Origin: an uncultured Verrucomicrobiota bacterium
Lineage (GTDB): Bacteria; Verrucomicrobiota; Kiritimatiellia; CAIVKH01
Length of the DNA: 32,000 nucleotides
NCBI GenBank assembly: GCA_937996795.1
Contig: CALKUH010000012.1
Span: 84,144-116,143 of the forward strand
Direction: 5' to 3'
Part shown: positions 4,034-28,924 of the stretch, one piece after another
How the letters are laid out: every line of letters begins with the position of its first letter
How positions within the stretch are numbered: the stretch's first letter is position 1
Notes under the pieces: generated by a model
Seen by the model: only the letters and a program-made list of their open reading frames with translations
Told to the model about the DNA's origin: nothing
Databases searched by the model: none
Program-made: the position numbers and the translations under genes

Positions 4034-4074
4034 TCCCCGCCGCCGCGCGTCAAGGAACAGGACGGCTGGATTTT

Positions 4075-6646: not shown

Positions 6647-6650
6647 GATT

Positions 6651-8780
6651 CTACAAAGCATCCTTCCCCTGGCCCGTATGAGCGGCCACTTCGGTGGCCG
6701 GCTTCGAGTCGGGTGACTGATCGTAATGCGAATAGTAGGAATGATAATAGTAGTAATTATCATCGCGCAGGATGTTGATGTTGTTCAACACCACGCCCAG
6801 CACCTTCGCGCCGACATTGTCGAGCATCCGGCGCGCGCGGGTGGAGATGTCGCGCGGATACTTGCGGTATTGAACGACCAGCAGCACGCCATCCACCTCG
6901 CTTGCCAGGATCGAGGCGTCGCTGACGCCGACGATGGGGGGCGAGTCGAAGAAGACCACGTCGTAGCGGGCCTTCAGGTTCTTGACCAGTTCGCGCATGC
7001 GCTGCGAGTCGAGCAGGCCCAGCGCCGCGCGGGGCAGTTTGCCGCTCGGCAGGAAATGCAGGTTCGGCACGGAGGTCGCCTTGATCGCCTCCTCCACCGC
7101 GGTCTCGCGCAGCAACACATTGGTGAGGCCGTAGCGGTTTGAAATGCCGAGGAACGTGTGCTGCACCGGGCGTCGCAGGTCGGAATCCACGACCAGCACC
7201 TTGTCGCCGAGCTGGGCGCAGACATAGGCCAGATTGAACAACGTGGTGGATTTTCCCTCGCCCGCGCCGCCGCTGACGACGGCAAACGCGCCGCCCGGCC
7301 CGCCGGTCTTGCGGGCGAACTGCATGTTGGTGCGCAACACGCGATAGGCTTCCGCATGCGGACTGTCAGGCCCCTCCTCCATCAGGGAACGCACCTTCTG
7401 CGGGATGACGCCGAGCACGGGCAGGCCCAGGTGGCGCTCCACGTCGTCCACCGTCTTCACGGACGTGTCGAGGTATTCGATAAAGAACGCGAGGCCGATG
7501 CCGGCCACGAGGCCGATGATGCCGCTGAGCAGGATGTTGAACATGTACCGCGGGCTGACGAAGCGCTCTTCGCTCGGCGGTTCGGCCGGCTCGATGACTT
7601 CCACCGGGGTGCGCGGGACTTCCATTTCGATGCCCTGCTGCGCGACGCGCGCGCGGAGGGCCGTGAGGATTTCGCGTTGGATTTCCACGTTTCGCTGCGC
7701 GCGCTCGAACGGGAGATATTGCTCGCCCTCCGACTGGATGTCGGCGTCCCGCACCGTGGCCAGCTCCGCCTCCAGCGCTTCATACTTCGCCTTCGCGACG
7801 GCAAAATCCGCGCGGATGCCCTTCTTGAGACCGTCCAGCGCGGCCGAGATCTTGACCTTCAATTCATCCAACCCCGCCTGCAACCGGCGGACTTCGGGGT
7901 GGTTCACGCCGAAATTCTCCAGCAGGAGCTTGAGTTGGATCTCGGAATCCACCAGCTGCTTCCGCATCGCCAGCAGGGACTGGTCGTTGACGATGTAGGC
8001 GGAGGAATCGATCAACTCCTGCCCGCTGAGCGCCTCCAGTTCGTCCAGCCGCGCCTTGCGCATCAGCATGTCCACGCGCGCGGCGATACGGTCGGCTTCC
8101 AGCGACTGGAGCCTCACCTTGTCCACCCGGAACCCGCGCTGCAGCATGCTCACGCCGCCCTCGCGGCGGATGCGCTCGAGCTCCTGCTCGGCGGCATCGA
8201 CTTTCTCCTGCTGCTTGCGCAATTCGTTTTCGAGCGCGTCGACGCCGCGCTGCACTTCGCGCCGCTTCAGCGACAGGCGCTGTTCGCGATACACGTTCGC
8301 CACCTCGTTCGCGATGCGCGCCGCCTCGTTGCGGTCTTCGCTATACACCTGGATATCGATCAGGTTGGTGTCGCGAAACTGGCTGACGCGGATCGATTTC
8401 GCCAGGATCAGGTAGGCCAGTTCGCGGCGGAGCACGCCGCCCTCCTGCCCGTACTTTTCCGCCCATTTCTGCTGCAGGTCCAGGTTCTGGATCACCTGGT
8501 AGAGGATGGGGCGCGACTGGATGATTTCGTACTGCGTCTTGAGGAAGAACGGATTGTAGGAGGACAGGTACTGCCGCTCAAACACCGGCACATCCAGCGC
8601 ATCCTCCTTCACGGAGATGCGCGCGTTGGCCATGTACACCTTCGGCATCGTGATGGTGTAGCCGATGCCGGTCAGCACGACGAGGAGCAGGACCGCGAGG
8701 ATGATTTCCTTGCGGGACTTAATGACCCGCCAGTAGTCGAGGAAGTGGAGCTTGTTATCGAGTTGTGGTTCGGCCGACAT
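6651..8780 (-). CDS. Polysaccharide co-polymerase / bacterial tyrosine autokinase (Wzc/GumC-type PCP-2a)
   Basis: 709-aa ORF. It has an N-terminal Wzz domain (LHFLDYWRVIKSRKEIILAVLLLVVL), a long coiled-coil periplasmic region and a second TM. The C-terminal CpsD/CapB ATPase carries Walker A GGAGEGKSTTLFNLA, Walker A' VLVVDSDLRRP and Walker B VVFFDSPP, followed by a terminal Tyr cluster. Confidence 0.9.
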   Translation of the reverse strand: MSAEPQLDNKLHFLDYWRVIKSRKEIILAVLLLVVLTGIGYTITMPKVYMANARISVKEDALDVPVFERQYLSSYNPFFLKTQYEIIQSRPILYQVIQNLDLQQKWAEKYGQEGGVLRRELAYLILAKSIRVSQFRDTNLIDIQVYSEDRNEAARIANEVANVYREQRLSLKRREVQRGVDALENELRKQQEKVDAAEQELERIRREGGVSMLQRGFRVDKVRLQSLEADRIAARVDMLMRKARLDELEALSGQELIDSSAYIVNDQSLLAMRKQLVDSEIQLKLLLENFGVNHPEVRRLQAGLDELKVKISAALDGLKKGIRADFAVAKAKYEALEAELATVRDADIQSEGEQYLPFERAQRNVEIQREILTALRARVAQQGIEMEVPRTPVEVIEPAEPPSEERFVSPRYMFNILLSGIIGLVAGIGLAFFIEYLDTSVKTVDDVERHLGLPVLGVIPQKVRSLMEEGPDSPHAEAYRVLRTNMQFARKTGGPGGAFAVVSGGAGEGKSTTLFNLAYVCAQLGDKVLVVDSDLRRPVQHTFLGISNRYGLTNVLLRETAVEEAIKATSVPNLHFLPSGKLPRAALGLLDSQRMRELVKNLKARYDVVFFDSPPIVGVSDASILASEVDGVLLVVQYRKYPRDISTRARRMLDNVGAKVLGVVLNNINILRDDNYYYYHSYYSHYDQSPDSKPATEVAAHTGQGKDAL
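6723..6758 (-). other. C-terminal tyrosine cluster of the BY-kinase (NYYYYHSYYSHY, 8 Tyr in 12 residues)
   Basis: Read directly: the reverse complement of gtaatgcgaatagtaggaatgataatagtagtaatt gives N Y Y Y Y H S Y Y S H Y. This is a local AT-rich patch in a GC-rich gene. Confidence 0.85.
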
Positions 8781-8865
8781 GCGTCACCCGGCGCCTTCGG
8801 GACGAAAGCAAAACCGGGCCCGTCCGACGTGGAGCGGACCCGGATGCTGTTCGTCCTGTTGGAAA

Positions 8866-10047
8866 TTACAGCTGCGTTCTCCAGCCCAACTCCACGCGGG
8901 TGCGATCGAAGTCGTTGCGGAGATCCGAGTTGAAATCAAGATACTGGATGGACGCTTCCAAGTAGTTCTTACGGTTCAGCATATAGCTCAACCGCGCGCT
9001 GCCCTGCATGACATCCTCATCCCCGTCCGTCGGGACCGTGTTCGGGTCGTCGATGGTCTGGTCGCCGTCGTATTGGCTGTTCTGGTAGCTGCCCGCAAGG
9101 AACAGCTGGATGCGTGCCGTCAGGTCGTGCGACAGGCTGATGTAGCTGAGCAGGCGGTCCTGGCTCGCGAACGGGAACACGTCGGCCTCAAACATCGAGT
9201 ACCCAACGCCGCCCGTGATGCGCGTCTTGGGCGACGGCAGATAGGTGAGGCTGATGTCGCCGAACGGCGCATTTTCGTCATCAATCGCGTCGTCATCGAA
9301 CGACTTGCTCTGGATGCCGCCGCGGACCGACCCGACCAGGTTGGGCGAGAAAATCTGCTCCAACCCGCCGCCGACAAAGATGCTCTCGGAACTGCGGTTT
9401 TCGGTGTCCGTATAGTCCGTCTGCTCCAGGCGCAGGTCGCCGGACAGGGCCGTCTCACGCTGCAACTGATGGCGCAACGTCACGCCCGCCGCCGCGATGT
9501 CGTAGTCGTCGGTCTCCGCCACCGCGTCCTCGTCATAGCGCAGGATCGTGTAGCGCCCGCCGACCTCGACGCGGGTCGGATCGCTCAAGCGATAGCCCAG
9601 CACGCCGTCGATGAGGTTGTAGGTGTAGTCGTCTTTTTCACGGACCACGGTGCCACGGTCGATCAACTCGGGCAGTTCGGCGATGCGCAGCGTGTTCTTT
9701 GCGTTCAGGGACAGGCGCGGGGTGAAATTGTGCGCGAACACGAGATCCGCCTCATGGTGGAAGTCCGTGTCGTCCGGATCGCGGTCGCCCCAGAAAATGA
9801 AGGTGGGGCGGTACCGGGCGCCAAAGAACGTCTGCTCCATGTCCATGTTGAGGAGTAGCTCGAGTTCCTCAATGATCTTGAAGCTGTCGGTTTTGTCCTT
9901 CTCGACCTCATAGACGTTGTCGTCCCAGCCGACGCGGAAGCGGTTCTTGATCTGGAAATTCTGCGCCGTCTCGGAGGCGGCAAAGCCGATCTGCGAGAGC
10001 ATCGCGCCGGTCAGCACGCCAGCGGCCGCGGTGGTAAGCCATTTCAT
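8866..10047 (-). CDS. Predicted outer-membrane beta-barrel protein associated with the polysaccharide export genes
   Basis: 393-aa ORF with signal peptide MKWLTTAAAGVLTGAMLSQIGFA. It is rich in alternating hydrophobic/polar strands and Asp/Gly/Asn turns (e.g. RLSLNAKNTLRIAE, RVEVGGRYTILRY, ALSGDLRLEQTDY). No enzymatic motif was seen. It ends RVELGWRTQL rather than with a canonical terminal Phe, so the barrel call is moderate. Confidence 0.6.
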   Translation of the reverse strand: MKWLTTAAAGVLTGAMLSQIGFAASETAQNFQIKNRFRVGWDDNVYEVEKDKTDSFKIIEELELLLNMDMEQTFFGARYRPTFIFWGDRDPDDTDFHHEADLVFAHNFTPRLSLNAKNTLRIAELPELIDRGTVVREKDDYTYNLIDGVLGYRLSDPTRVEVGGRYTILRYDEDAVAETDDYDIAAAGVTLRHQLQRETALSGDLRLEQTDYTDTENRSSESIFVGGGLEQIFSPNLVGSVRGGIQSKSFDDDAIDDENAPFGDISLTYLPSPKTRITGGVGYSMFEADVFPFASQDRLLSYISLSHDLTARIQLFLAGSYQNSQYDGDQTIDDPNTVPTDGDEDVMQGSARLSYMLNRKNYLEASIQYLDFNSDLRNDFDRTRVELGWRTQL

Positions 10048-13384: not shown

Positions 13385-13927
13385 TCACGCCAGCAAGCCG
13401 GCGGCCACACGTTGCGCCGTCGCCGCGCTGTCCACGCGCCGCACAATTTCCAGCGCAAAGGCCATGCTCGTTCCGGGCCCCTGGCTGGTGATGAGATGAT
13501 CGTCCACCACGACGCGCTCGTTCACGCGCTTCGCCGCGGTGAGTTGCTCAGCGGCGGTCGGATAGCACGTGACGCGGCGCCCCGCGAGGATGCCGGCCTC
13601 CTGCAATACCAGCGGCCCCGCGCACACGGCGCACACCCATCGACGCGCCTGGTGCATCGCGCGAATCGCGTCGAGCACGCGCGGATCCGCGCTCAATTTG
13701 TGCACGCCGCCCAGCCCGCCGGGCACAACGATCGCATCGAAATCCAGCGGATTCACCGCATCCAGCGCCGCATCGGGCACGAGCTTCACGCCGCGCGACG
13801 CCGTCAGCGCGCCGTCCCGCAACCCCGCGGCCACGACCTGGAACTCCGCGCGGCGCAACACGTCGATCACCGTCACGGCTTCGATTTCCTCACACCCCTC
13901 GGCCAGCAACACGAGTGCTTTTTTCAT
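13385..13927 (-). CDS. DJ-1/PfpI (ThiJ/YajL) family protein
   Basis: 180-aa ORF: MKKALVLLAEGCEEIEAVTVIDVLRRA..., FDAIVVPGGLGG, and the nucleophile elbow VCAVCAGPLVL. Confidence 0.9.
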   Translation of the reverse strand: MKKALVLLAEGCEEIEAVTVIDVLRRAEFQVVAAGLRDGALTASRGVKLVPDAALDAVNPLDFDAIVVPGGLGGVHKLSADPRVLDAIRAMHQARRWVCAVCAGPLVLQEAGILAGRRVTCYPTAAEQLTAAKRVNERVVVDDHLITSQGPGTSMAFALEIVRRVDSAATAQRVAAGLLA

Positions 13928-13936
13928 GGCCCCAGT

Positions 13937-15133
13937 CTACAGGATTCGCACCGTCACGTCGCGCTCTTCCTTCCGCGCCCGCTGCGGGGCGGCAGCCGCC
14001 GACGGCTTGCCCGGCGCCATCACCACGTAGCCGGGATCGAACGTCCACGCGGGAAACGTTCGCACGCGTTCGCGCTCCTCCGCACTCAGCGGCATCATCG
14101 TAAAGAGCGGAAGAATCGGCCGCCCATTCGCCTCGACGGGATACTGCACACCCTCCTGCTGCAACAGCAGCACGCCGCCCACGCGGCCGCCCGGATGCTC
14201 GCCGACCAGGATGTCGATGCGCGTCGGCTGGTCATCCGGCAGCGCGACCCAATCGCCGTACACGAGCGGCTTGCCTGCGAAACAGGGGTGCGCGTCCACA
14301 AAATCCGAGGGCGCCCACGGACTCGGATCGCCGGTCCACAGGAACTCCAGCACGGTGCGCCCGTTGATCGCCACCACGAGCAGGTCGTCGAACATGCCCA
14401 CGAAGCGGAACCGTCCGCCGGTCCGCGGCTGGAGTTCGCCCGTGTAGTGCACCACCCACTGCGTCGGCTCCATGAGATCCTGCACGCCGAACGCCGCCGG
14501 GCCCGTCGTCGCGGCGCTGTAGGGCACAAACAAATGCGAGAGATAGAGGCGGCGCGGCAACCGGTGGAAACCGGAGAAGGCCTGCGGCTTCATGCGGCCG
14601 CCCAGGATCGTGCGCACGTCTTCCACATACGACCGGCTGACGCGCAGCGCGCCTTTGGCATCGCGTTTCAAATCATACATCGTGCCGACCAGGTCGCCCT
14701 CCAGCCGATCGCTGAACCCGAACGCCGTGCCGCCCTTGCGCGCGTCGACGGCCGCCCATGACGCATCCGGAACCAGCGGCAGGTCGGACAACACGCGCCG
14801 GGAAATTTCCACGTCGCTCTGCAACGCCGGCGCTTCGATCTCGGACTCCAGTGCGACGGCGAGTTCCGGCGGACGCGGCAGCTCATCCAGATTCCGGGGC
14901 GCCTCCTCCGGGCTGGGTTCCGGCGCGGGATCCAACGCGAACAGCTCGTCCTTCACATAGTCGAACTCGACGTCCGGCTGCGGCGTCAGCGTCCCGCGCG
15001 CCACCGCGAAGCGGATCAGCACGAGCGCCAGCACCGCATGAAACAGCACGGAAACCGCGCCGGGCAGCGCCCGCTTCAGGCGCCCGCGCCACACCGGCCG
15101 GCCCGCGTTCACAGGCATCGCATGGTCCGTCAT
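13937..15133 (-). CDS. Membrane-anchored protein with a C-terminal PA14-like beta-sandwich
   Basis: The track ORF (13937..16363, 808 aa) has a spurious N-terminal half antisense to the WbaP gene. The real start is MTDHAMPV (ATG 15133) with AAGGAG 6 nt upstream. It has one TM (AVSVLFHAVLALVLIRFAV), an acidic/Pro linker, then WVVHYTGELQPRTGGRFRFVGMFDDLLVVAINGRTVLEF, which matches the PA14 core pattern. It lies 9 nt upstream of the DJ-1 gene. Confidence 0.7.
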   Translation of the reverse strand: MTDHAMPVNAGRPVWRGRLKRALPGAVSVLFHAVLALVLIRFAVARGTLTPQPDVEFDYVKDELFALDPAPEPSPEEAPRNLDELPRPPELAVALESEIEAPALQSDVEISRRVLSDLPLVPDASWAAVDARKGGTAFGFSDRLEGDLVGTMYDLKRDAKGALRVSRSYVEDVRTILGGRMKPQAFSGFHRLPRRLYLSHLFVPYSAATTGPAAFGVQDLMEPTQWVVHYTGELQPRTGGRFRFVGMFDDLLVVAINGRTVLEFLWTGDPSPWAPSDFVDAHPCFAGKPLVYGDWVALPDDQPTRIDILVGEHPGGRVGGVLLLQQEGVQYPVEANGRPILPLFTMMPLSAEERERVRTFPAWTFDPGYVVMAPGKPSAAAAPQRARKEERDVTVRIL

Positions 15134-15241: not shown

Positions 15242-16660
15242 GTGGGGTTTATGCGAACACGGGACAGCTTTGACGCCAAAACCAGCCTTGTGGCCGTCGT
15301 CGCCGACGCCATTGCCGTCTTCGCGGGCTTCCTGCTCGCGGTGTGGATCCGCTTCGATTCCGGCTGGCTCGAGGTCACCCGCGGGCATCCCCCGCGCCAC
15401 ATGTATCTCTATGCCGCCATCGTGGTGACCATCCTGCTGCTGTTCATCTTCCGCTCGCTGGGGCTCTACCAGCGGCCGCAGTACGGCCACTTCATCGACA
15501 AGATCCCGCGCATCGTGCGCGCCTGCGGCTTCGGCGTGCTGCTTGCCATGGCGCTCGCGTTCGTCATCCAGATCGACCCGCCGTTCTCGCGTCTCGCCAC
15601 CGCCATCGCGCTGGCGACGGTCACGCTGTTTGTCGTGCTCGAACGAAACATTCTCTTCGCCTGCGAGCGGCATTGGGCGAAATACCAGGCCGCCAAGCGG
15701 CGCATCGTCCTCATCGGCGCCGGCCCGCTGGCCGCGCGCCTGCGCCACAAGCTGGAAGGCGAACCGCGCCGGCGCTGCCGCGTCGCGGCGTGCATCGCGC
15801 TGCCCGGCGAAACGCCGGATCCGGATTTGCCGTCCTCCCTCGTCACCCCCTCGCTGGAGCACCTGCCCGCGCTGCTGCAACAGGAGGCCGTGGATGCCGT
15901 GGTGGTGACCCGCCCCTCCGCGCTTTCGCAGGAGCAACTGGTCGACCTCATGCTGCACTGCGAGCGGAATCTCGCCGACTTCCTGATGGTGCCGGACCTG
16001 TTCCGCCTGCTCACCAGCCAGGTGGACATGCAAAACGTCGATGAAATCCCGCTGATCGGCGTCGGCAAATGGCCGCTCGACCATTTCTGGAACCGCATGC
16101 TGAAACGCGGCGAGGACATCGCGGGCGCGCTCACCGGCCTCATCCTTTCGGCCCCGGTCATCGCGTTCGCCGCCGCGGCCATCAAGGCGACCTCGCCCGG
16201 CCCCGTGTTCTACAAGCAGGAGCGCTGCGGCGAAAAGGGCCGCGTCTTCACGCTCTACAAACTGCGCACGATGCGCGTGGACGCCGAGGCGGAAACCGGT
16301 CCTGTGTGGACGGCGCCCGACGATCCCCGCCGGACCAAACTCGGCGCCTTCCTCCGCCAGCACAACATCGACGAGTTACCGCAGTTCTGGAACGTGCTGA
16401 AAGGCGAGATGAGCCTCGTCGGCCCGCGCCCCGAACGCCCGCATTTCGTCGAGCAGTTCAAGGACGACATCAACCGCTACATGTGGCGCCACGTCCACAA
16501 GCCCGGCGTCACCGGCTGGGCCCAGGTCAACGGCTACCGGGGCCAGACCGACCTGCAGAAACGCATCGAGCTCGACCTCTGGTACCTCGAAAACTGGTCC
16601 CTCGCCCTCGACTTCAAAATCCTGCTCCGCACCTTCTTCGCGAAGAAGAACGCGTACTGA
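15242..16660 (+). CDS. Polyprenyl-phosphate hexose-1-phosphate transferase (WbaP/EpsB-type initiating phosphoglycosyl transferase)
   Basis: 472-aa ORF. It has N-terminal TM helices, a central Rossmann-like [11 protein letters not shown], and the C-terminal bacterial sugar transferase domain [31 protein letters not shown]...[24 protein letters not shown]...[12 protein letters not shown]. The track start is GTG at 15242; ATG at 15251 is an alternative. Confidence 0.9.
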
Positions 16661-16702: not shown

Positions 16703-19700
16703 CTATTGCGGCAACCCGACGCGGATCTGGTAGGTGCGGTTGCTGGCGGCGGCGGGATGCGGCGTGGTGAGGATGCCGTCGTCAATCCACGTCAGGATGC
16801 CGCCGGTGCCCGGGATTGCATTCGTCGTGGCCTGGGTCCAGGCCGCGTTGAGCGGGCCGCTGTTGGCGTACCACACGTGGTATTCGCGCTGCGCCTTGCT
16901 CGGGAATCGCACGACCATTCCGTTGTTGGTCGGACTGGTCGCGTTCACGCGGAAGTAATCGGCGGCGTCGCCCGGATTGGTGTTTGAAATCCATTCCGCC
17001 GCGTTGTTCATCGTGTCGCCGTCCTGGTCGCCCGCGGCATCCGCGTTGTTGGTCGCGCTGAGGAAGCCATACTGGTCCTCAACCGTGTTCGGGATGCCGT
17101 CGCCGTCCCAGTCGGACATCATCGCGCGGAAGCGGAGGTCGAAGCTGAACGTGCCCGTGCCGAACAATTCCACCTGGTGAGTCTGCGCCTGGTTCCGCAT
17201 CTGGCGCGTGAAGAACAGGTTCCCGTCATCATCCACGGCATTCGTGTTCGCATTCGCGCTGTTGCCGGCGTCGGCATAGCCGATCTCGGCATTCACGGTG
17301 AACGCGTAGCTCGTGTTCGCAAGCCGCATCACACCGCCCGCATGCTGCTCGGCGCCGAGCGTGCGCTGGCCGTTCAGCAGCAGGTCGTACAGGTTCGGCG
17401 AAAGCCCGTTGCGCAGGTACAGCGTCTGGCCGTTCATGCCGCCCGCGAGCGCGTACTGCACGCGGAAGGCCCAGCTCTTCGGCGCCAGCGTGATCGTCTT
17501 GGTGATGTCGCCGTCGGCTGACACCGCACGCCAGCCGTTCGTCCAGTTCGTAAACGTGTACAGGTGGTTCACATAGTTCGTGCCGCCGCCCTTCGTGGCG
17601 TACCAGTCCTTGAGGCCCGATGTGCGATAGGCGCGCACGTTGCCGTTCGTGAAGTTGTTGAACTCGCCCTCCCACTCGCTCTCCGAACCGGAGTAGCCGG
17701 CCGGGTTGCCCACGACCTGGAAGATGCGGCCGCTCAATAAATCGCGCGTCCACGCCCCGACCATGCGTCCGCCGATGCGCTCGAAGATCGCGAACACGCG
17801 GTCGTTGTAGAGCACGTATTCATCCTCGCCGTCGAGGTCCACGTCCTCCGCCAGCGCCTGCGGCGTCGTCACGGAGCCCGCGAACGCGGCCCACGCGTCC
17901 ACGCGCTGGAACTTCCGCGCGAACCGCGTCTGCGACTGCGCATGACGCGAGAAGGATGCCAGGTTGTCGAACGTCGTGTCGGGCGACACGTAGGTGCCGA
18001 TGCTGAACCGCTCGAGGTTGTTGTTGTCCTCGTCGTGGAACGCGGTCTGGAACGCGGACGCGTGCATCACGCCGCGCGCGAGCTTGCCGAGGTTCGTGTC
18101 CGCCACGTTCTGCACCTGCGCCCACGCCTGCGACACGATGCCGCCGAAATAGAGCATGCCGTATTCCGTACCGAGCTTGACGCCGGGCCGGATGTCGAAC
18201 CGGTTGGTCTGCAACCCGTGCTCGGCGCCGGAGAGCCCGACGTACCAGTTGTCGAAGTCGTTGCGCGCCGCGTGCTGGATGTAGTTGTGGCTCAGCTTGT
18301 TTGTCGCCACGTTGCCGCGCTCGACGACCCACCAGTTGTCGCCAAACCCGTCGCGGTTCAGGTCCACCTGCCCGGTCAGCACATCCTCCAGCGCGACCAC
18401 CTCAATCCACGGGCGGTTTGCGATCCAGCGCAGGTTCCGGTCGTACGCATCGGCGTTCGCCTGCACCCCGAAGTCCTCCCAGTTGCTCAGCAGCACGAGG
18501 ACCTGGTCCTGCGCGCCCGCGCGGGCGCGGCGGTTGAAGATGCCGCGCAGTGGCATGTTCATGCCGTTGTCGTTGTTCTGGAACCGGTAGTTCGACGCGA
18601 AGTTGTTAATCACGAACGTCTTCGTGCCGTTGATCCGGTTGATCATGTAGCCGCCCTGCTCCAGCGAGGCGGTGCGGCCGAGCCAGTAGAACAGATGCGT
18701 GTCCTGGTCCACCAGCGTCGCGTCGTAGCCCATCTGCGCGATCTTGTTGAACGAGTCGCCGTCGAGCACACGCTCGGGCGGCCAGAAGATCGAGCTGCTC
18801 GTGAGGTCCACGCCGTAGATGTGCTCGAGGAACTCGCGCGCGAGGTTCGCGTTGTCCACGTTGTACTGCGGCGTGTAGTACGGCAGCACGTGGTCGGAGA
18901 AGGTGCTGCCCATCAGCCGCACCACGCCGTCGTCCGCGAGGCCCGCGATCCACTGGTTGAACGCCGGCCCGTCGCGCCACGGCGTGCCGTGCACGGGATC
19001 AACCGACGCCCACTGGATGGCCGACGCGAGCGTGGGCGTGATGTGCAGGTTCACGGGCTCGCCGTAGATTTCGTGGATCAACAGCATGCGCTGGTAGCCG
19101 GCGCCCGCGCCGTTGTTGATCAGTTTCTGGATCTCGCTGCCCGGCTGGATGTGCTGGTTGGCGTGCGCCACGAAGGCGACCTTCGCACGGCCCGCGAACG
19201 TGCCCTTGTTGTAGTAGTTCACCAGCGCGTTCTGGATGCTGCCCTGCGCCTGCCAGTAGTCCTCCGCGACGTGGTCGTCGTAGATCGTGTCGCGCACGTC
19301 GTTGCGACCGCCAATGTCGCCGGCGCCCGGCGTGCTGCCCGTGCCGCAGGAGTTGCAGGTGCCGTCCTTCGTGCTGAACACCTGGAAGTTCAGCGAATTG
19401 ATGTTGCCGTTCCAGCCCGCGTCGATCAGCGCCTGGCGGTTGATGCTGAACTCGACGGCGTCGAGTTCCGAGTTGTAGTAGGACGCGCGGAATCCGGTCG
19501 AATGGTTCTGGTCGCGCCGCTCGACGCCGAACGCCGTCAGGTTGCCGCCGTGCGCCTGGATGGTCGAGTTGCTCCCCGGGTTCGTGTCCACGTACACCGC
19601 GCCGGAACCCGACTGGTACGCCGCCACCACCACCTCCCAGCGGCTGCTGGTGATGAGGTCCACATCGTCCGGCAGCGCCATTTCGCCCGACAGAGGATTG

Positions 19701-22700
19701 CCGGTGTCGATGACCACGTACAGGTCGAGGAACCCCTCCTCCGCCAGCGGCTGCAGGTCGTGCATATCCACGCGGAAGTAAAACTCGCCCGTGTCCGGTC
19801 CGCCGTCGCGCGCATAGAACGCCACGATGTCGCGCGAGGTGTCGAAGCCATCCCACCCGAGATACAGGTCGCCGCCCTGGTTGTTCGGGCCGTCGCCTTC
19901 GTACTCATCGAGCACGATCAGGTCGTCCCACTCCCAGTCGATGAACTCGCCGTAATTCGTCACGCCGTTCACGACCCCGAGCACGTTCGTGCCGCGGCCG
20001 ATGATGATGGAGCCTTCCGGCGGCGGCCCGCAGTTCTCCGCCTGCCGCGGGTTCGTGCCGTTCACGAATTCCAGCAGGTTGTAGTACGCGTTGGTCGTGT
20101 TGCAGATCACGTCGCCGTCCGGATTGCCGAACGCGCCGTTGTCGGTGTTCGCGATGATCCCGCCGGTGCGCATGTTCGTGTGGCCGATCGTGCCGTTGTC
20201 CCACGGATCGAGCCCGTACTGGACCTCCCAGCCGTCCGGCAATCCATCGCCGTCCGTGTCCTTGTTCAGCGGATCGGTCTCCGTCCACAACTCCCCGGCA
20301 TTCCAGATACGGTTCGAGTTGCTGTCGCCGTCGATGCGCCCGTTGAAGTTCTTGTCCTCGCCCCAGCCGTCGCTGAGCCCATCCTCGTCCGAATCGTTTT
20401 TCGTCGGGCTCGTCTCGGTCCAGGTCTCACCGGCATTGATGAGGTTGTCCGGCCAGTTGCGCGCGAGCCACGGATCCCAGGTGGGATCAATGGGAGCGCC
20501 GTCGCCATCCACCCAGCCGTTCCGGTTCGCGTCCTCCACGCCATCCGGGATGCCGTCGTAATCCGAGTCGGGGTTGTTCGGGTCGGTCATCGTCCCGCGC
20601 ACGAGCCGCGTGCGGTCGCCTCCCTCGTTCTGGCTGTTGACGCCGGGCACCTTGCCGAAGTTGTCGAGCGTATTGAAGAACGGCGGGTCGAGGTCGGACG
20701 CAAAATTGCGCCAGCCGTCGCCGTTCGTGTCCACATTGGTGTCCGTCGCGCTCAGCGGCGCGCGCCAGCCGCTTTCGAGGCCGTCCGGCAGCCCGTCGCC
20801 ATCGGAGTCCGGCATCAGCGGGTCGGTCTTGCCATAAATCCGCCAGATGTGGACATCGGAGTTGTCCCACGTTTCCGAGTTCGTCGGCGGCAGGTTGGTC
20901 GCGCTGTTTTCGGCGTCGTCGTACAACCCGTCATCGTCGTCATCCAAATCGTTGGTGTTGCTGTTCACCGACTGGCGGAAGACCACGGTCGCGTTGCGCG
21001 TGGCGCTGGCCTCCACCGTGCCGACGTTGTTGTTCGTGTCCACGCGCGCGAAGATCGTGTAGCTGCCCGGCGCGGTGATGTTGGTCCACATGAAGTCCCA
21101 CTTGAGCCGGTTAGCGTTCACCTGCCGCGGGTTCGGGTCCACGCGGAACGCGGTGAGGTTGGTGGCCGTCGCGCCCGGGTAGCCGGCGGTCAGCACCGCG
21201 TTCGTCGGGTTGAGCACCTGCGCCACGGCGAGGGTGTGCGTCGTGATCTTCACGCTGCTGCCGGTCTGCAGCTCCACGTCGAGGCGCGGCTGCAACAGCG
21301 CGGCGACATTCGTCACCGAATTGGTCGGGAACGGGTCGGCGATGTAGAGCTGCGTCTGCGACACGACCTGCGTGACCGTCAGGTTGAGCCCGGCGATGCG
21401 GATGGTGTTGCCCGCGCGGATGTCGTTGGTGAAGGTCGTGCCGCTGCCGGAGACCAGCGTGTTCGATTCGGTGACCGAGACGTTGCCCAGGCTCTTCGCG
21501 CGGGCAACGACGAGCGTGCTGCCGTTGACCACGTCGATCCACCCGGCCACCGGGTTCTCAACGGACGTCAGCTTGTAGGCGCTGCCCGCGTTGTTCGCGA
21601 ACTCGATCCAGACCTCCTTCGCGTTGAGGTCCGTGTCCACCTGGATCGGATAACTCCGCTGCTCCGGCGCCGGCGACGCGACATCCGGCAGCACGATCAC
21701 ATACGGCTTGCCGACGGAATCCACCTCGGGAGGATTCACGATCGACACGAACGCGCCCGTCGCCTCGGAGAACGCGCGGATGATGCGGAACGCCTCCAGC
21801 AGCACGTTGCCGCCGGTCAGGTGCGTGACCTCGATGCTGTGCAGGAAGTTGGTGTCGCCGTTGAACAGGTCCGGCAGCGTGAACAGCAGGTCGTGCGTAT
21901 CCGCCGTCGTGTTCCAGTCCACCGTGAAGTTCTTGGGCTGCGCGGAGCCGTTGATGCGGACGAGGAAGCGGCTCTTCAGCGTGTCCTCGCTGATGCTGTC
22001 GGCGAGCGACTTGCTGAAGCGCACGCGCATCACATAGTCCCACTGGTCGTTGATGAGCTGGCCGTCCGTCTGCGGGAACGCGACGAACATCGACTGCGTG
22101 GGGCCGGCGGTGTTCACGATGCGGTTCAGCGTGCGGAACCAGCCGTTCGAGTCGTTCAGCGTGAGGTTCGTGGACGACGAGATTTCCGCGAGCCGCACCT
22201 GCACCGTCGCGACGCCCGCCGCCGGGATGTTGCGGTAGGTGAAGCGCCACTCGTCGGGGAACTCGCTCTGGATGTTCAGGCTCGGCGTGACGCCGTTCGC
22301 CTTCACCCATGCGAGCTGGCCGAGCGCATTGGTGCCGTTGCCGTTCGGGTTGCCGGTGTTCGCGTCGTCGTTCAGCGGGTTGGCATCCTGGATGTTGAAG
22401 TAGACGTCGCGCGCCGTCGGGTCGGTGCGGACGACGAAACCGTATTCCTGCGACGGCAGCGTGTCGCCGTCCGCCGCCGCGAACACGATGCGGCCCGTCG
22501 GCGGCTGCGTATCGTAGTAGAACGTCTGGACAAAGGTGTTGAAGAGCGACGCCTGGCTGGTGCGCTCGAGGAAGGCGCGCCCGCGCAGGACATGGAATCC
22601 TTCGTTCAGGCCGACCTGCGTCGCGCCGTAGTCAAAGTGCGGCTTGTGCGCCACCGCCGCCGCGTTGAAGTTCGTGACCTCCCACTCGCCGAGCAACCGC

Positions 22701-25366
22701 TTCTTCAGGCTCACCACGGAGGCGTTGACCGGATACGGCACATACCACGCCGCGTTGCCCGATCCGTCCTGCCGGCGGTACATCCCGATCTTGTAGCGCA
22801 GCACCGTGCCGTTCGGCATCGCCGGCAGCGTCGCGCGCCACCAATCCACGTTGCCGTCCGGATTGTCGGCCGCCACCCAGAACATCTCGGCAACCTTCGT
22901 ATTGCCGACGCCCTGCCCCGCCGCACCCTCCGGGAAAGAGGTCCCGTCAGTGGTGTAGTAGACGTACGCCTTGTTCGCGTCGAACTTGTATCCCGCCTTG
23001 ACCCAGATATCCACCGGGTCGCCATCCGCGTCCTCCGGCGGGGGCGTGAAGTGGGTCTGGGGCGACTGGTTGGTCGCGGTGATAAAGGCCGCGGGGTCGT
23101 GGAAGGCGAACTCGACCGACTCGGCGTCCGACCAGTCATTCGTGCCGGTGCCGGCAAAATTCGTCACGCCCGCCGTGCCGATCACGGCCTGGTAACTCTC
23201 CGACCCGGGCGAGCCATACTGGTTGCGGTTGGAATCCTTCGCCGCGAACTTTTCGCGCCCGACCGTGCGCTGCACAAACTGCGCGGTCTCATACCCGAGG
23301 TACACGTCCGTCGCCTTGCCCGGCCGGTTCTCGCGGTTCAGCGCCCAATCCGCGTTGTTTGTCTCGCCAATGCCCATCTGCGAATTGATGTTGATGCCGC
23401 CATCGAGCTTCATCAGCACGTCCTTCGCCGAGCCGTCCACGCGCACCGAGAACCGCAGGTTCGTCCCGGAGGTGATCCGCGGCACGGTCCAGGTGTACTT
23501 GAAGTCGCCGGCCGTGTCGCCGGGCACGCCGTAGGGATTGAAGTTCGCGTCGCCGCTCGGCCCGTCGCGCCGATCGTAGGACACCGTCGGCGCGCGCGCG
23601 CCGTTCTGGTAGATCTCGACCGGCTTGCCGCCGATCGTCCGCCACGCGTCGGACTCCTCCGGCGTGCGCGGCGCGAAGGCGAAGTAGCCGCCCGGCGGCA
23701 CGATCACGGAATTGAGCTGCGAGGCATAGACGTAGAACCCGCCGCCGTAGGTCGAGTAGTTGTAGAGGTACGTGTCATCCACAAACGGTGTCTTGCCGAA
23801 CTGCACGTTGCCGACGACGGAGCGCGAGGCGCCGGCGGAATAGTTGTCGTTCATCATGAACAGCAGCGTCGCCCAGTCCTTGCCGTTCGACCCGCCCTCG
23901 CGCTTGTCGATGCGGTGATAGGCGAGGAAATCGTTGTCGCCCCACACGCCCCACTGCTCGCCGCGCGCGAAGTGGTTGTGGATGTAGACGAGGTTCGGCA
24001 GGCGCTGGTCGCCGAACTGGCCGAGGAAGGCGGTGTTCGCGTGGCGCGGGAACGCGCCGCCGGATTGCGCGAGCGTTTCCGACTGGTAGTTGCCGTCGGA
24101 ATAGACGTTCGGCAACCCCGCGCGGGTCATGTAGAAGGCGTACTGTAGCTCGCGCGCCTTGGCGTAATCGCTGTCGTGGCTGTGTGCAAACTGGACGCCT
24201 TGACCCGCGCTGAACATGCTGCCGCCGCCGGGCTGATCGAGTCCCGAGAGATTACCCCATGATTCTCCCAGAATGCCGTTGAGGTGGTCTCTCAGCGGCG
24301 CATCCTTGAGGCGCATGCCTGCATCAATGTAGCCGAAAAATCCTGGCGGCTGGGCAAGATGCTCGCCGAACATCATCGCGTCGTCGCGCGGAACCTCGGT
24401 GTCGAACACCGAGTTGCGGTGGTTGTTGTCCAATCCGTCACCATTGAACCCGCGCGCGCGGTTGAACGCGACCTGCGCCTGTCCGCAATAGCCCGCGTCG
24501 CTCTCATCCTTTCCGATGCCCGACTGCTGGCCGAAGAAGAAGTCCGGCACATGTTTCACCGCATCAAGACGAAGGCCGTCTGCCTTTGAAATCTCCATCA
24601 GCCAGCGCACCGAGCGCATCAGGTAGCCGCCGACATCCTCGGAATAAAAGGACTGGTTGCTGTTGATCAGGCCCGTCGTGATGTTCGTATTGCCGAAGCC
24701 CAAATAGCCGAGCGTCGGGTGGAAATCGTAGTACTCGGGATTGTTCGGATGTCGAACGAAGCTGACCTTCGGATAGGTGCCGCCTTCGAACCGGCCGAAG
24801 TTCGCATTCGGCGATTCCTGCGCGATGTCGATCAGGTCCGAGAAGTTGCGGTTCTGCAACTGCCAGGCGTCATTCCAGTCGGCCACATTGTCCCACTTGC
24901 GATAGAACCCGTCCTCCGTCACACGCAGATGGAAATCCTCCGGCACCATGCCGGGATACAAATCAATCGGCGTCGTCTCGTTGTACCCGGGGATGTCGAA
25001 CGCCCGGTGGTTCATGATGTTGTCGATGTAGATGCGGATGCCGAACCGCTGCGCCGTCTGCACCATGCGGAGGAACTCCGCCTGCGTGCCGTAGCGCGTG
25101 CGCACCGTGTTGCGCTGGTCCTTGCCGCCCAAGTCGAACGGGTCCCAGAGATCGTAGCCCACCGACAGCCCGCCGCTGCCCTTCGTCGGCGGCGGAATCC
25201 AGATCGACCCGTAGCCGACCTCCGCCAACTCCGGCATCTTGTCGATCATGTCGCGCCAACTCGTGTTAAAGAGCTGGATCATCACTTCCGCGCGCCCCAA
25301 CATCGGAAGCGCCAACAGAAACAAGGCCAGCATGCGCAATTTGCTGCCGAAGACTCTCATCATCAC
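16703..25366 (-). CDS. Giant secreted multidomain alpha-glucan-active protein (2887 aa): GH13 amylase, unassigned beta-rich region, TSP3 repeats, GH57-like module, C-terminal TSP3 pair and tail
   Basis: Single uninterrupted ORF with a signal peptide, balanced amino-acid composition and recognisable motifs throughout (see sub-features). The 2068-aa + strand ORF 17942..24148 is its Arg/Val/Ala/His-rich antisense shadow. Confidence 0.9.
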   Translation of the reverse strand: MMMRVFGSKLRMLALFLLALPMLGRAEVMIQLFNTSWRDMIDKMPELAEVGYGSIWIPPPTKGSGGLSVGYDLWDPFDLGGKDQRNTVRTRYGTQAEFLRMVQTAQRFGIRIYIDNIMNHRAFDIPGYNETTPIDLYPGMVPEDFHLRVTEDGFYRKWDNVADWNDAWQLQNRNFSDLIDIAQESPNANFGRFEGGTYPKVSFVRHPNNPEYYDFHPTLGYLGFGNTNITTGLINSNQSFYSEDVGGYLMRSVRWLMEISKADGLRLDAVKHVPDFFFGQQSGIGKDESDAGYCGQAQVAFNRARGFNGDGLDNNHRNSVFDTEVPRDDAMMFGEHLAQPPGFFGYIDAGMRLKDAPLRDHLNGILGESWGNLSGLDQPGGGSMFSAGQGVQFAHSHDSDYAKARELQYAFYMTRAGLPNVYSDGNYQSETLAQSGGAFPRHANTAFLGQFGDQRLPNLVYIHNHFARGEQWGVWGDNDFLAYHRIDKREGGSNGKDWATLLFMMNDNYSAGASRSVVGNVQFGKTPFVDDTYLYNYSTYGGGFYVYASQLNSVIVPPGGYFAFAPRTPEESDAWRTIGGKPVEIYQNGARAPTVSYDRRDGPSGDANFNPYGVPGDTAGDFKYTWTVPRITSGTNLRFSVRVDGSAKDVLMKLDGGININSQMGIGETNNADWALNRENRPGKATDVYLGYETAQFVQRTVGREKFAAKDSNRNQYGSPGSESYQAVIGTAGVTNFAGTGTNDWSDAESVEFAFHDPAAFITATNQSPQTHFTPPPEDADGDPVDIWVKAGYKFDANKAYVYYTTDGTSFPEGAAGQGVGNTKVAEMFWVAADNPDGNVDWWRATLPAMPNGTVLRYKIGMYRRQDGSGNAAWYVPYPVNASVVSLKKRLLGEWEVTNFNAAAVAHKPHFDYGATQVGLNEGFHVLRGRAFLERTSQASLFNTFVQTFYYDTQPPTGRIVFAAADGDTLPSQEYGFVVRTDPTARDVYFNIQDANPLNDDANTGNPNGNGTNALGQLAWVKANGVTPSLNIQSEFPDEWRFTYRNIPAAGVATVQVRLAEISSSTNLTLNDSNGWFRTLNRIVNTAGPTQSMFVAFPQTDGQLINDQWDYVMRVRFSKSLADSISEDTLKSRFLVRINGSAQPKNFTVDWNTTADTHDLLFTLPDLFNGDTNFLHSIEVTHLTGGNVLLEAFRIIRAFSEATGAFVSIVNPPEVDSVGKPYVIVLPDVASPAPEQRSYPIQVDTDLNAKEVWIEFANNAGSAYKLTSVENPVAGWIDVVNGSTLVVARAKSLGNVSVTESNTLVSGSGTTFTNDIRAGNTIRIAGLNLTVTQVVSQTQLYIADPFPTNSVTNVAALLQPRLDVELQTGSSVKITTHTLAVAQVLNPTNAVLTAGYPGATATNLTAFRVDPNPRQVNANRLKWDFMWTNITAPGSYTIFARVDTNNNVGTVEASATRNATVVFRQSVNSNTNDLDDDDDGLYDDAENSATNLPPTNSETWDNSDVHIWRIYGKTDPLMPDSDGDGLPDGLESGWRAPLSATDTNVDTNGDGWRNFASDLDPPFFNTLDNFGKVPGVNSQNEGGDRTRLVRGTMTDPNNPDSDYDGIPDGVEDANRNGWVDGDGAPIDPTWDPWLARNWPDNLINAGETWTETSPTKNDSDEDGLSDGWGEDKNFNGRIDGDSNSNRIWNAGELWTETDPLNKDTDGDGLPDGWEVQYGLDPWDNGTIGHTNMRTGGIIANTDNGAFGNPDGDVICNTTNAYYNLLEFVNGTNPRQAENCGPPPEGSIIIGRGTNVLGVVNGVTNYGEFIDWEWDDLIVLDEYEGDGPNNQGGDLYLGWDGFDTSRDIVAFYARDGGPDTGEFYFRVDMHDLQPLAEEGFLDLYVVIDTGNPLSGEMALPDDVDLITSSRWEVVVAAYQSGSGAVYVDTNPGSNSTIQAHGGNLTAFGVERRDQNHSTGFRASYYNSELDAVEFSINRQALIDAGWNGNINSLNFQVFSTKDGTCNSCGTGSTPGAGDIGGRNDVRDTIYDDHVAEDYWQAQGSIQNALVNYYNKGTFAGRAKVAFVAHANQHIQPGSEIQKLINNGAGAGYQRMLLIHEIYGEPVNLHITPTLASAIQWASVDPVHGTPWRDGPAFNQWIAGLADDGVVRLMGSTFSDHVLPYYTPQYNVDNANLAREFLEHIYGVDLTSSSIFWPPERVLDGDSFNKIAQMGYDATLVDQDTHLFYWLGRTASLEQGGYMINRINGTKTFVINNFASNYRFQNNDNGMNMPLRGIFNRRARAGAQDQVLVLLSNWEDFGVQANADAYDRNLRWIANRPWIEVVALEDVLTGQVDLNRDGFGDNWWVVERGNVATNKLSHNYIQHAARNDFDNWYVGLSGAEHGLQTNRFDIRPGVKLGTEYGMLYFGGIVSQAWAQVQNVADTNLGKLARGVMHASAFQTAFHDEDNNNLERFSIGTYVSPDTTFDNLASFSRHAQSQTRFARKFQRVDAWAAFAGSVTTPQALAEDVDLDGEDEYVLYNDRVFAIFERIGGRMVGAWTRDLLSGRIFQVVGNPAGYSGSESEWEGEFNNFTNGNVRAYRTSGLKDWYATKGGGTNYVNHLYTFTNWTNGWRAVSADGDITKTITLAPKSWAFRVQYALAGGMNGQTLYLRNGLSPNLYDLLLNGQRTLGAEQHAGGVMRLANTSYAFTVNAEIGYADAGNSANANTNAVDDDGNLFFTRQMRNQAQTHQVELFGTGTFSFDLRFRAMMSDWDGDGIPNTVEDQYGFLSATNNADAAGDQDGDTMNNAAEWISNTNPGDAADYFRVNATSPTNNGMVVRFPSKAQREYHVWYANSGPLNAAWTQATTNAIPGTGGILTWIDDGILTTPHPAAASNRTYQIRVGLPQ
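16706..17116 (-). other. C-terminal TSP3 pair and ~90-aa terminal domain of the giant protein
   Basis: DWDGDGIPNTVED and DQDGDTMNNAAEW are followed by ADYFRVNATSPTNNGMVVRFPSKAQREYHVWYANSG...RTYQIRVGLPQ, which is beta-strand-like with no recognised sorting motif. Confidence 0.5.
17132..19189 (-). other. GH57-like module (about aa 2060-2745) including a DUF1926-like C-terminal beta-sandwich
   Basis: By-eye alignment to the five GH57 conserved regions. Region I is VAHANQH (vs HQHQP). Region II is GVVRLMGSTFSDHVLPYY (vs GQLEIV..PYYHP). Region III is FWPPERV (vs WLTERV, nucleophile E2198 at 18773-18775). Region IV is SNWEDFG (vs DDGEKFG). Region V is ASAFQTAFH (vs AQCNDAYWH). DVDLDGEDEYVLYNDRVFAIFERIGGRMVGAW resembles the DLDGDG..E..L.N start of the GH57-associated C-terminal domain. 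Confidence 0.55.
20192..20950 (-). repeat. Thrombospondin type-3-like calcium-binding repeat region (about aa 1473-1725)
   Basis: Repeated DxDxDG-type motifs: DLDDDDDGLYDD, DSDGDGLPDGLE, DTNGDGW, DSDYDGIPDGVED, DSDEDGLSDGWGED, DKNFNGRIDGD, DTDGDGLPDGWE. There are three copies of a longer unit of the form (S/G)E(T/L)W...DP...D(S/T)DGDGLPDG. Confidence 0.8.
23657..25288 (-). other. GH13 alpha-amylase-family catalytic domain (about aa 27-570) with the full catalytic triad
   Basis: All four GH13 conserved regions were read. Region I is IYIDNIMNH (D115 at 25022-25024). Region II is DGLRLDAVKH (nucleophile D268 at 24563-24565). Region III is MMFGEH (acid/base E335 at 24362-24364). Region IV is FAHSHD (D398 at 24173-24175). 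Confidence 0.85.
25289..25366 (-). other. Signal peptide of the giant protein (about aa 1-26)
   Basis: MMMRVFGSKLRMLALFLLALPMLGRA-EV: a basic n-region, a Leu-rich h-region and an A-x-A-like cleavage site. Confidence 0.7.
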
Positions 25367-27345: not shown

Positions 27346-27453
27346 AGCCGTTCCCACGTTGCACAGAAGGCCGGGCTGGATTCCAGTTTCCGGTCGGGAT
27401 ATCGTAGCAGGGTCCTGCGCTTGAGGCATCCGATTCAGGAGGAGGCGGACGGA

Positions 27454-28897: not shown

Positions 28898-28924
28898 ACA
28901 AACTCCTCCTGGTCGTCCGCGCGA

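Follow-up and report, generated by a model that had tools for sequence, protein, structure and literature searches.

A conserved large secreted protein of Verrucomicrobiota and their relatives that joins a predicted GH13 alpha-amylase to a remote GH57 relative with an altered acid-catalyst region

The subject of this article is one very large gene in a 32,000-nucleotide stretch of DNA (the window) from an uncultured Verrucomicrobiota bacterium of the class Kiritimatiellia (GTDB lineage CAIVKH01; contig CALKUH010000012.1 of assembly GCA_937996795.1, positions 84,144 to 116,143 of the forward strand). It encodes a protein of 2887 residues, predicted to be secreted, that carries at its N-terminal end what reads as a catalytically complete GH13 alpha-amylase and, towards its C-terminal end, a distant relative of GH57 4-alpha-glucanotransferases that appears to have kept the catalytic nucleophile of that family and lost its canonical proton donor. 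The reading that we prefer, and to which we give a little better than an even chance, is that of a secreted, calcium-stabilised amylase in which the GH13 module would do the cutting, while the donor-less GH57-like module would hold or position alpha-glucan, or would have weak and non-canonical activity at most. An initial annotation of the window, made from its letters and a list of its open reading frames (ORFs), had arrived at the same gene and had taken it as a fusion of two amylolytic catalysts.

The gene is a single unbroken ORF both in the ORF list and in the translation of the window, as that annotation had it. The start codon is GTG, followed at once by two ATG codons, and one of these (codons 2 and 3) may be the true start. 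A basic and then hydrophobic leader opens the protein, and an equivalent leader is found in all orthologues, where it terminates right before the motif E[VA]M[LI]Q[YL]FNTSW. G+C at third codon positions (GC3) is 0.91 and uniform. Since that composition goes together with a signal peptide and with 55 intact orthologues in other genomes (described below), the ORF is a real gene, of a predicted secreted protein, and is neither a chimera nor unique to this genome. A long antisense ORF within the gene (17942..24148, plus strand, 2068 residues) was considered as a gene and rejected: its GC3 of 0.59 (with a GC1 of 0.93), set against the 0.91 of the coding frame, is that of a shadow ORF of a high-GC gene.

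Pfam recognises the N-terminal module as GH13, with PF00128 scoring 34.8 bits when given the whole protein and 40.1 bits when given residues 1-620 (cut-off 22). NCBIfam alpha-amylase models match it too (best 5e-33, of the PRK09441 type), with scores that fall far under their equivalog cut-offs (114 against 516), so that the module is not an orthologue of those enzymes. An AlphaFold2 (AF2) model of residues 1-1000, built on 46 homologues (pLDDT 82.9), was compared with the PDB by Foldseek: the best matches are 3bc9, 8xc9, 6gxv, 1hvx, 1bli and 1mwo (E ~1e-17 to 4e-18), the top 24 are all GH13 alpha-amylases, and cyclodextrin glucanotransferases rank lower. The four conserved regions of the family read DNIMNH (115-120), GLRLDAVKH (264-272), MFGEH (332-336) and FAHSHD (393-398). 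An alignment of 56 full-length orthologues served for residue counts here and throughout; besides the catalytic triad (Table 1), H120, R266, H272 and H397 are present in every one of its sequences. On sequence and model together, the module is best taken as a Termamyl-like GH13 alpha-amylase with an intact catalytic triad, which upholds the initial annotation on this point. Structurally closest to residues 1-1000 are the Termamyl-like enzymes of Bacillus licheniformis (1BLI) and Geobacillus stearothermophilus (1HVX), AmyB of Halothermothrix orenii (3BC9) and the Pyrococcus woesei amylase (1MWO). The module shares with them the conserved regions and the Asp/Glu/Asp triad; unlike them it has more than 2200 further residues behind it, and its identity to them is only 15-20%.

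The relationship of the C-terminal module (residues ~2055-2745) to GH57 is remote. PF03065, the Pfam model of the family, reaches 18.7 bits when the whole protein is searched and 21.3 bits with residues 2050-2760, a borderline result at a cut-off of 21.2, and it covers profile positions 94-196 only; 9 of 13 full-length orthologues match it at E<=0.01 (best 2.1e-8). The initial annotation had staked its GH57 assignment on a significant match of this kind, and had asked for profile searches of the whole ORF; PF00128 and the repeat model PF18884 (see below) both clear their cut-offs, PF03065 stays at or under its threshold, and of the further GH57-associated models PF09095 matches only weakly (17.5 bits), in a relative of the module designated P0365. 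Searches of PDB sequences with the C-terminal module alone and with a 47-sequence profile gave no match even at E<=10, and homology to GH57 consequently had to rest on structure and on profile-profile comparison.

Structure prediction and Foldseek comparison of the separate segments, which had also been proposed at the outset, support both a GH13-type fold (4e-18) and a GH57-type fold. The AF2 model of residues 1775-2750, built on 47 sequences, has a pLDDT of 89.7 and a pTM of 0.90, and its best matches are 1k1x and 1k1w, the GH57 4-alpha-glucanotransferase of Thermococcus litoralis (TLGT), at E 2e-19; the alignment to 1k1x runs over 789 columns at 13% identity, and GH38 mannosidases and other GH57 structures come next in rank. 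For profile comparison by hhalign the TLGT sequence was confirmed against the PDB and GH57 glucanotransferases were gathered into a profile. A profile of the clade in which the module is fused to GH13 finds the single TLGT sequence weakly (22% probability) and the 25-sequence GH57 profile at 82% probability (E 1e-5), over the first three of the five conserved sequence regions (CSRs) of the family and stopping before CSR-4.

It is through stand-alone relatives that the comparison can be carried further. A search of 1.84 billion representative proteins brought up proteins of ~700-1200 residues that match the hidden Markov model of the GH57-like core at 1e-42 to 1e-176 (P0413 at 9.5e-95) and some of which Pfam assigns to GH57 (P0413 at 53 bits, 3.5e-14; P0443 at 34 bits). 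Set against the GH57 4-alpha-glucanotransferases, a profile built from these relatives gives an alignment of 487 columns (98.65% probability, E 4.9e-16) that covers TLGT 6-565. The C-terminal beta-sandwich lies within that span, the segment DlDxDGexEyVLxN pairing with TLGT DVDFDGRAEIMVEN; in the 2887-residue protein this sandwich starts DVDLDGEDEYVLYN. Because the direct comparison stops before CSR-4, the mapping of that region is secured only by way of the stand-alone relatives. Sequence and model thus agree that the C-terminal module is truly, if distantly, related to GH57 and is of the three-domain 4-alpha-glucanotransferase type. It appears to share with TLGT the three-part build of (beta/alpha)7 barrel, helical region and C-terminal beta-sandwich, and the placing of the nucleophile Glu in a W-x-x-E-R-V motif; it differs in an identity of no more than 12-13%, in the divergence of CSR-1, CSR-2 and CSR-5, and in Pfam GH57 scores at or under threshold. 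The stand-alone relatives (P0365, P0368, P0370, P0402, P0413, P0443 and others), which keep FDDWE and mostly go unrecognised by Pfam, form a separate, uncharacterised group related to GH57. Counts of 37,726, 10,274 and 884 from the representative library were rejected as measures of family size, the TSP3 columns of the search profile attracting unrelated repeat proteins.

GH57 is defined by a Glu nucleophile in CSR-3, on strand beta-4, and an Asp proton donor in CSR-4, on strand beta-7 (PMC6037648). In TLGT the five regions read HNHQP, GQLEIV, WLTERV, HDDGEKFGVW and AQCNDAYWH, the donor being the third residue of CSR-4 (PMC6037648). The corresponding segments of the module are HANQH (2068-2072), GVVRLM (2147-2152), WPPERV (2195-2200), LSNWEDFGVQ (2293-2302) and ASAFQTAFH (2436-2444). 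CSR-3 alone among them is canonical; CSR-1, CSR-2 (in which the Glu is lost) and CSR-5 diverge from TLGT. Fold and C-terminal sandwich were thus correctly assigned in the initial annotation, and the match to all five conserved regions that it had also claimed does not hold.

The nucleophile of TLGT (E123) has its equivalent in E2198, and the position of the donor (D214) is taken by N2295. The column of N2295 is variable among the orthologues (N in 16, D in 12, M in 6, P and A in 4 each, R in 3, and others), and the Asp that precedes the donor in the DD pair of CSR-4 is replaced by Ser in 42 of the 56; the region as a whole reads x-S-x-W-E-[DE]-F. Stand-alone relatives have FDDWEA[YF] at this place, with DD aligning with D213-D214 of TLGT, so that the loss of the proton donor would be specific to the fused clade. 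Around it the pocket looks to be still under constraint: H2068, E2198, R2199, D2220, Q2221, H2224 and H2444 are each found in 56/56. A group of '4AGT-like' GH57 proteins has been described in which WLPERV is kept and the donor is absent, and which are regarded as probably not typical enzymes (PMC6037648). The module resembles these proteins, of which that of Marinithermus (WLPERV / PPEGLWVAAV; PMC6037648) is an example, in having kept the nucleophile and lost the donor. Like TLGT, they are stand-alone proteins of ~620-670 residues, whereas the module sits at the C-terminal end of a 2887-residue protein, behind GH13.

With two active amylolytic catalysts no longer the default, we propose that the protein would be exported by way of its Sec signal peptide and that, once outside the cytoplasm, its Termamyl-like GH13 module would cut alpha-1,4-glucans (starch, glycogen, maltodextrins). 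The GH57-like module, in which the nucleophile Glu remains, as does most of the pocket, but the CSR-4 donor is lost, is most probably not a second conventional hydrolase; it more likely binds or positions alpha-glucan chains as a '4AGT-like' pseudo-enzyme, or performs weak or non-canonical transfer at most. The repeat region and beta-sandwich domains would make up a rigid, calcium-stabilised spacer, and the terminal beta-sandwich, which shorter paralogues also have, may serve for anchoring or sorting. The analysis shows that the gene is intact, what its domains are, in what state their catalytic residues stand, how far the protein is conserved and how often its neighbours recur; substrate, location, and the binding, spacer and anchoring roles are what we infer.

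Several considerations weigh against this proposal. The nucleophile Glu and its Arg neighbour, each present in 56/56, go beyond the obvious need of a pure binding role. Position 2298 is D or E in 51 of the 56 fused proteins and mostly Ala in stand-alone relatives; an acidic residue there could be a relocated acid/base, in which case the module would be active. The substrate is assigned by family membership and neighbouring genes alone, and the window itself offers no alpha-glucan uptake genes, the gene adjoining exopolysaccharide genes instead. The first two of these considerations lead to the alternative of a dual-catalyst megaenzyme, in which both modules would be active, the CSR-4 Asp would have its place taken by E2297 or D2298 from the short helix that follows beta-7, and the GH57-like module would add glucanotransferase, debranching or exo activity to an endo-amylase. 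An acidic residue at 2298 that is common where the DD pair is lost and mostly Ala where it is canonical looks compensatory; no fused sequence is without an acidic residue somewhere within 2295-2298; R2199 and six other residues of the pocket are as constant as the nucleophile; and the position of the donor can be uncertain in GH57, the predicted donor of the family's alpha-galactosidase failing to superpose structurally (PMC6037648). Against this, none of these positions is universally acidic (2295 in 13/56, 2297 in 48/56, 2298 in 51/56), five sequences having E2297 alone; the first Asp of the DD pair has gone as well; and the literature treats donor-less GH57 '-like' groups as probably not typical enzymes (PMC6037648). 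We regard a second active catalyst as unlikely, if as the most credible of the competing explanations, and prefer the amylase with a donor-less, glucan-binding module.

How common is this architecture? With each GTDB species represented by one genome, a scan turned up at least 403 stretches that encode relatives of the C-terminal module. The best 79 of these were examined as loci, and in 58 the GH57-like ORF is uncut by a contig end. One intact ORF of 2638-3089 residues, colinear with residues ~1-2887 and opening with a signal peptide, is present in 55 of the 58; in the remaining three (L016, L017 and L019) it is shorter or frame-broken. Conservation extends along the whole length of the protein except for residues ~1260-1420. 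Carriers belong to Kiritimatiellia, to Lentisphaerota/Victivallales and to Verrucomicrobiota (Chthoniobacterales, Opitutales, Verrucomicrobiales), and include Brevifollis gellanilyticus NBRC 108608, Luteolibacter, Prosthecobacter, the isolate "Kiritimatiellaeota bacterium B1221" and a Methylacidiphilales metagenome-assembled genome (MAG). The closest relatives, L007 and L008, come from MAGs of Kiritimatiellia type, and at the DNA level their identity over the gene is ~80-85%. Some genomes seem to hold two copies, the locus pairs L032/L074, L009/L023 and L013/L036 each coming from the same MAG.

Rarity of the architecture is thus not borne out. A first protein search had suggested it, its hits to the C-terminal module all being of 1355 residues or less. 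Rarity was rejected when these hits proved to be contig-truncated or frame-broken pieces: the protein database returned only such short hits because assemblies split the orthologue at frame changes, and the "separate" GH13 genes upstream in these assemblies are colinear with the 2887-residue protein, parted from the rest by frame changes only. At L001 (4902-13423), L004 (5278-13588), L005 (4418-13049) and L006 (5208-13576) the orthologue is called as 2-4 genes in this way. Short database homologues and split gene calls are also what might have suggested that the long ORF is an assembly chimera or a read-through artefact of two genes. That explanation can practically be dismissed: the pieces of the split calls line up in order along the whole protein, 55 independent GTDB genomes have the ORF intact, representatives of 2800-3179 residues are present in a library clustered at 50% identity, and GC3 is uniform along the gene. 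A splitting misassembly, which had been named as fatal to the fusion, is excluded by this cross-genome conservation.

Both halves of the protein also exist apart. The N-terminal half alone is found in Luteolibacter luteus, in a complete genome, as a protein of 1412 residues (P0117) that matches residues 12-1277 and then ends in an RFYRV tail, with no GH57-like gene adjoining it; the GH57-like core exists alone in the stand-alone relatives, with canonical catalytic residues retained. On these grounds the 2887-residue protein would be a fusion of the two.

What lies between the two modules is not a simple linker. The initial annotation had them linked by thrombospondin type 3 (TSP3) repeats, and the repeats are there (PF18884 at 26.8 bits against a cut-off of 25, in 3 stretches). 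They are not the sole connection, ~850 residues of beta-rich domains coming before them and a beta-sandwich of ~260 residues after. Eight loops of the form D/N-x-D/N-x-D/N-G, starting at residues 1475, 1520, 1546, 1600, 1612, 1658, 1671 and 1703, lie within 1475-1711; in the whole protein that looser pattern has 10 matches and the strict pattern D-x-D-x-D-G-x-x-D-x-x-E has 5. One of the looser matches, at residue 2335, falls inside the GH57-like module and outside any TSP3 region. Because its Asp and Gly positions are invariant in 13 distant orthologues and it is among the better-conserved parts of the protein (mean column conservation 0.62-0.76), the TSP3 region is best seen, on sequence, as a structured, conserved element and not as a loose linker.

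The domains flanking it have no assigned family: Pfam scans of residues 560-1430 and 1780-2050 at E<=10 gave no match. Residues 601-1259 are conserved in orthologues and also occur in short paralogues of ~1400 residues. The beta-sandwich that precedes the GH57-like barrel is conserved not only among orthologues but also in some stand-alone relatives; its residues ~1800-1900 may resemble the beta-sandwich modules of glucodextranase type, a lead for which Pfam gives no match. DNA for the insertion at residues 1260-1420 is also found in L007 and L008; within its ~160 residues two similar segments of ~45 residues, GNTIRIAGLNLTVTQVV and GSSVKITTHTLAVAQVL, can be seen by eye. Beyond the GH57-like module, the loop at residue 2752 rests on a pattern match, a weak PF18884 match (12.4 bits, E 0.15) and an NCBIfam MtsD match over residues 2744-2800, and the D-rich stretch that accompanies it, read from the translation, matches neither loop pattern. 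The terminal domain of ~90 residues also closes the short paralogues P0117 and P0114 of ~1400 residues, and it may have a sorting or anchoring role; the C-terminus was also considered as a possible sorting signal of PEP-CTERM type, of which there is none in the sequence.

The TSP3 regions also attract the NCBIfam models of CglD (2e-15) and MtsD (3e-8), Myxococcus proteins with which the 2887-residue protein has TSP3 repeats in common. This raises the alternative of a surface adhesion or cohesion protein, whose glycosidase folds would act chiefly as lectins, attaching cells to one another or to particles, and not in nutrition. A very large protein with a highly conserved TSP3 region, a terminal beta-sandwich common to paralogues and a GH57-like module without its canonical donor would suit such a role. 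The likeness to CglD and MtsD is confined to the repeats, which are all that the matches cover, with scores far under the cut-offs (55.6 against 400 and 32.2 against 800), and those proteins, unlike this one, have no glycosidase modules. The full GH13 catalytic machinery, present in 56/56, argues for real hydrolysis, and the gene clusters with GH13 genes and sugar transporters. An adhesin of this kind seems to us improbable, and we return to the secreted amylase in considering the genes around it.

At its 3' end the gene lies close to exopolysaccharide (EPS) genes. The stop-to-stop gap to the convergent PF02397/CoA_binding_3 gene (WbaP-type; 15242..16660) is 42 nt, exactly as first noted, and a scan of that gap region for terminators and promoters found nothing. 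An EPS/lipopolysaccharide (LPS) cluster occupies 1033..10047. The initial annotation had left a choice between a scavenger of starch or glycogen and a remodeller of a self-made, alpha-glucan-containing exopolymer. The latter would have to do with the adjacent Wzx/Wzy-type locus, of which the WbaP-type, Wza, Wzc, Wzy_C-TPR and porin genes would be parts. Adjacency to WbaP-type genes recurs at L016, L018, L025 and L051. These are 4 of the 79 loci, and neither L007 nor L008, the two closest relatives, has the arrangement. Being convergent and not co-oriented, the gene and its WbaP-type neighbour are not co-transcribed; RNase HII, a PF01557 fumarylacetoacetate-hydrolase-family gene and two unrelated ORFs (13385..15130) separate the WbaP-type gene from the other EPS genes; and there is no sign that the EPS is an alpha-glucan. 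Membership of the EPS cluster is accordingly not indicated, and remodelling of an exopolymer is quite improbable, a shade more so even than the adhesin.

The sole recurrent neighbour, and the only one that is widely conserved, is a GH13-like gene of ~1130 codons (PF00128, ~28 bits). It is found in 23 of 57 loci with enough DNA, on the same strand and a median of 75 nt downstream (for example at L083, 9518-12910; L001, 13446-16823; L005, 13069-16542), and appears to be a conserved partner gene; in the present window it does not adjoin the gene. Further GH13 genes and major facilitator superfamily or ABC solute-binding-protein transporters lie near the gene at L001, L005, L071, L083 and other loci, and the stand-alone relative P0368 has the Ig-like N-domain of alpha-glucan water dikinase. 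Since WbaP linkage is rare and these other associations point to alpha-glucan, scavenging is favoured over remodelling of an exopolymer.

Some further features of the window can be recorded here. The minus-strand run at 1033-10825 encodes a GT2, a GT9 of heptosyltransferase type, LpxK, a Wzy_C protein with C-terminal TPRs, a Wza-type exporter, a Wzc-type chain-length/tyrosine-kinase protein, a BBP2_2 beta-barrel porin and an unassigned ORF of 244 residues. The two ORFs at 13385-15130, also on the minus strand, share a frame with one stop codon between them; one (~400 residues) has an N-terminal hydrophobic segment and no Pfam match, and the other (180 residues) is DJ-1/PfpI-like by eye. On the other side of the gene, 25534-29574 has a GC of 0.55-0.60, against ~0.65 elsewhere, and encodes a TPR protein of 603 residues and three ORFs without Pfam match. 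Because the big gene at L008 has the UPRTase gene immediately upstream of it, the block looks to have been inserted between these two genes.

Table 1. Positions of the gene and its features in the window, with the evidence for each
Feature	Position	Strand	Evidence or remarks
Whole gene	16703..25366	-	2887 codons and TAG stop at 16703-16705; colinear with 55 intact orthologous ORFs
Predicted signal peptide, residues 1-26, MMMRVFGSKLRMLALFLLALPMLGRA, ending before EV	25289..25366	-	Sec-type, read from sequence: basic then hydrophobic leader
GH13 alpha-amylase module, residues 27-600: (beta/alpha)8 barrel, domain B, domain C	23567..25288	-	Pfam, NCBIfam, AF2, Foldseek
D268, predicted GH13 catalytic nucleophile	24563..24565	-	56/56 full-length sequences; 46/46 database homologues
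E335, predicted GH13 general acid/base	24362..24364	-	56/56 full-length sequences; invariant in database-homologue alignment
D398, predicted GH13 transition-state stabiliser	24173..24175	-	56/56 full-length sequences; invariant in database-homologue alignment
Conserved beta-rich domains, residues 601-1259, no family match	21590..23566	-	AF2: mostly beta-strands at residues 600-950
Lineage-specific insertion, residues 1260-1420	21107..21589	-	67-83% gaps in 56-sequence alignment
TSP3-type calcium-binding repeat region (predicted), residues 1471-1725	20192..20956	-	PF18884, NCBIfam, loop search
Beta-sandwich before GH57-like barrel, residues 1780-2040, no Pfam match	19247..20029	-	AF2: strands at model residues 21-226
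GH57-like (beta/alpha)7 barrel and helical region, residues 2055-2500	17867..19204	-	AF2, Foldseek, hhalign, PF03065
E2198, equivalent of GH57 catalytic nucleophile (TLGT E123)	18773..18775	-	hhalign; 56/56 together with R2199
N2295, at GH57 proton-donor Asp position (TLGT D214)	18482..18484	-	hhalign; hmmalign against stand-alone relatives
C-terminal beta-sandwich of GH57-like module, DUF1926 / AmyA-gluTrfs_C type, residues 2501-2745	17132..17866	-	Foldseek, hhalign
TSP3-type loop DWDGDGIPNTVE from residue 2752 and looser D-rich stretch DQDGDTMNNAAE, residues 2750-2795	16982..17119	-	
Terminal beta-sandwich-type domain, residues 2800-2887, no Pfam match	16706..16969	-	consensus ...FPT..R.Y......L...W......G.G......D.G.....RFYR..V..P

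Much of what the protein is made of is already known: both folds, multi-catalytic carbohydrate-active enzymes, TSP3 repeats and donor-less GH57 "-like" proteins have all been described, and the family itself is in the databases, where full-length members go by the names "alpha-amylase family glycosyl hydrolase", "glycosidase" or "hypothetical protein". Amylolytic chains with more than one catalytic module include the amylopullulanases with two GH13 modules and the beta/alpha-amylase of Paenibacillus, which combines GH14 and GH13. The 2887-residue protein resembles these in tethering two folds of alpha-glucan-active families in one secreted chain and differs in that its second fold is of GH57 type without the canonical acid catalyst. 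A search of the full-text literature found no characterised or described single chain joining GH13 to GH57, and no characterised member of this architecture came up among the names of full-length homologues in databases. The initial annotation was thus right that none is characterised; the architecture is nevertheless common. A term search of the supplementary table of a 1602-sequence, CAZy-based GH57 census turned up no entry for Verrucomicrobia, Opitutus or Coraliomargarita (PMC6037648). An 'Opitutaceae' GH57 sequence of that census was considered as a described member and rejected, as it has 479 residues and unrelated CSRs (PMC6037648).

A bolder proposition, which we put forward tentatively and think rather less likely than otherwise, is that the fused clade constitutes an undescribed GH57 subfamily, possibly a family of its own, that is spread across the Planctomycetes-Verrucomicrobia-Chlamydiae (PVC) group, that its active site was rewired after the fusion, and that the protein is the first GH13-GH57 single-chain machine, its parts joined by a conserved thrombospondin-like calcium region. 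Rewiring might take either of two forms: the general acid may have moved from the DD pair of CSR-4 to E2297/D2298 on the helix behind it, which would make a GH57 catalyst of unusual mechanism, or a dead GH57 may have been co-opted as a large module for alpha-glucan binding.

No major concept is changed by this protein family. If the proposal is true, PVC members (Verrucomicrobiota, Kiritimatiellia, Lentisphaerota), a group of abundant polysaccharide degraders in soil, water and guts, would share a conserved extracellular amylase of ~2800 residues of which annotation sees only "alpha-amylase family" or "hypothetical". The splitting of the gene into 2-4 at frame changes in some assemblies is a caution for metagenome gene catalogues, and the fusion provides, as a Rosetta-stone link, an alpha-glucan context for the stand-alone GH57-like relatives. 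If a GH57 fold did lose its canonical acid catalyst only once it had been fused, the family would also be a clean system in which to follow the origin of a pseudo-enzyme or the relocation of a catalytic residue.

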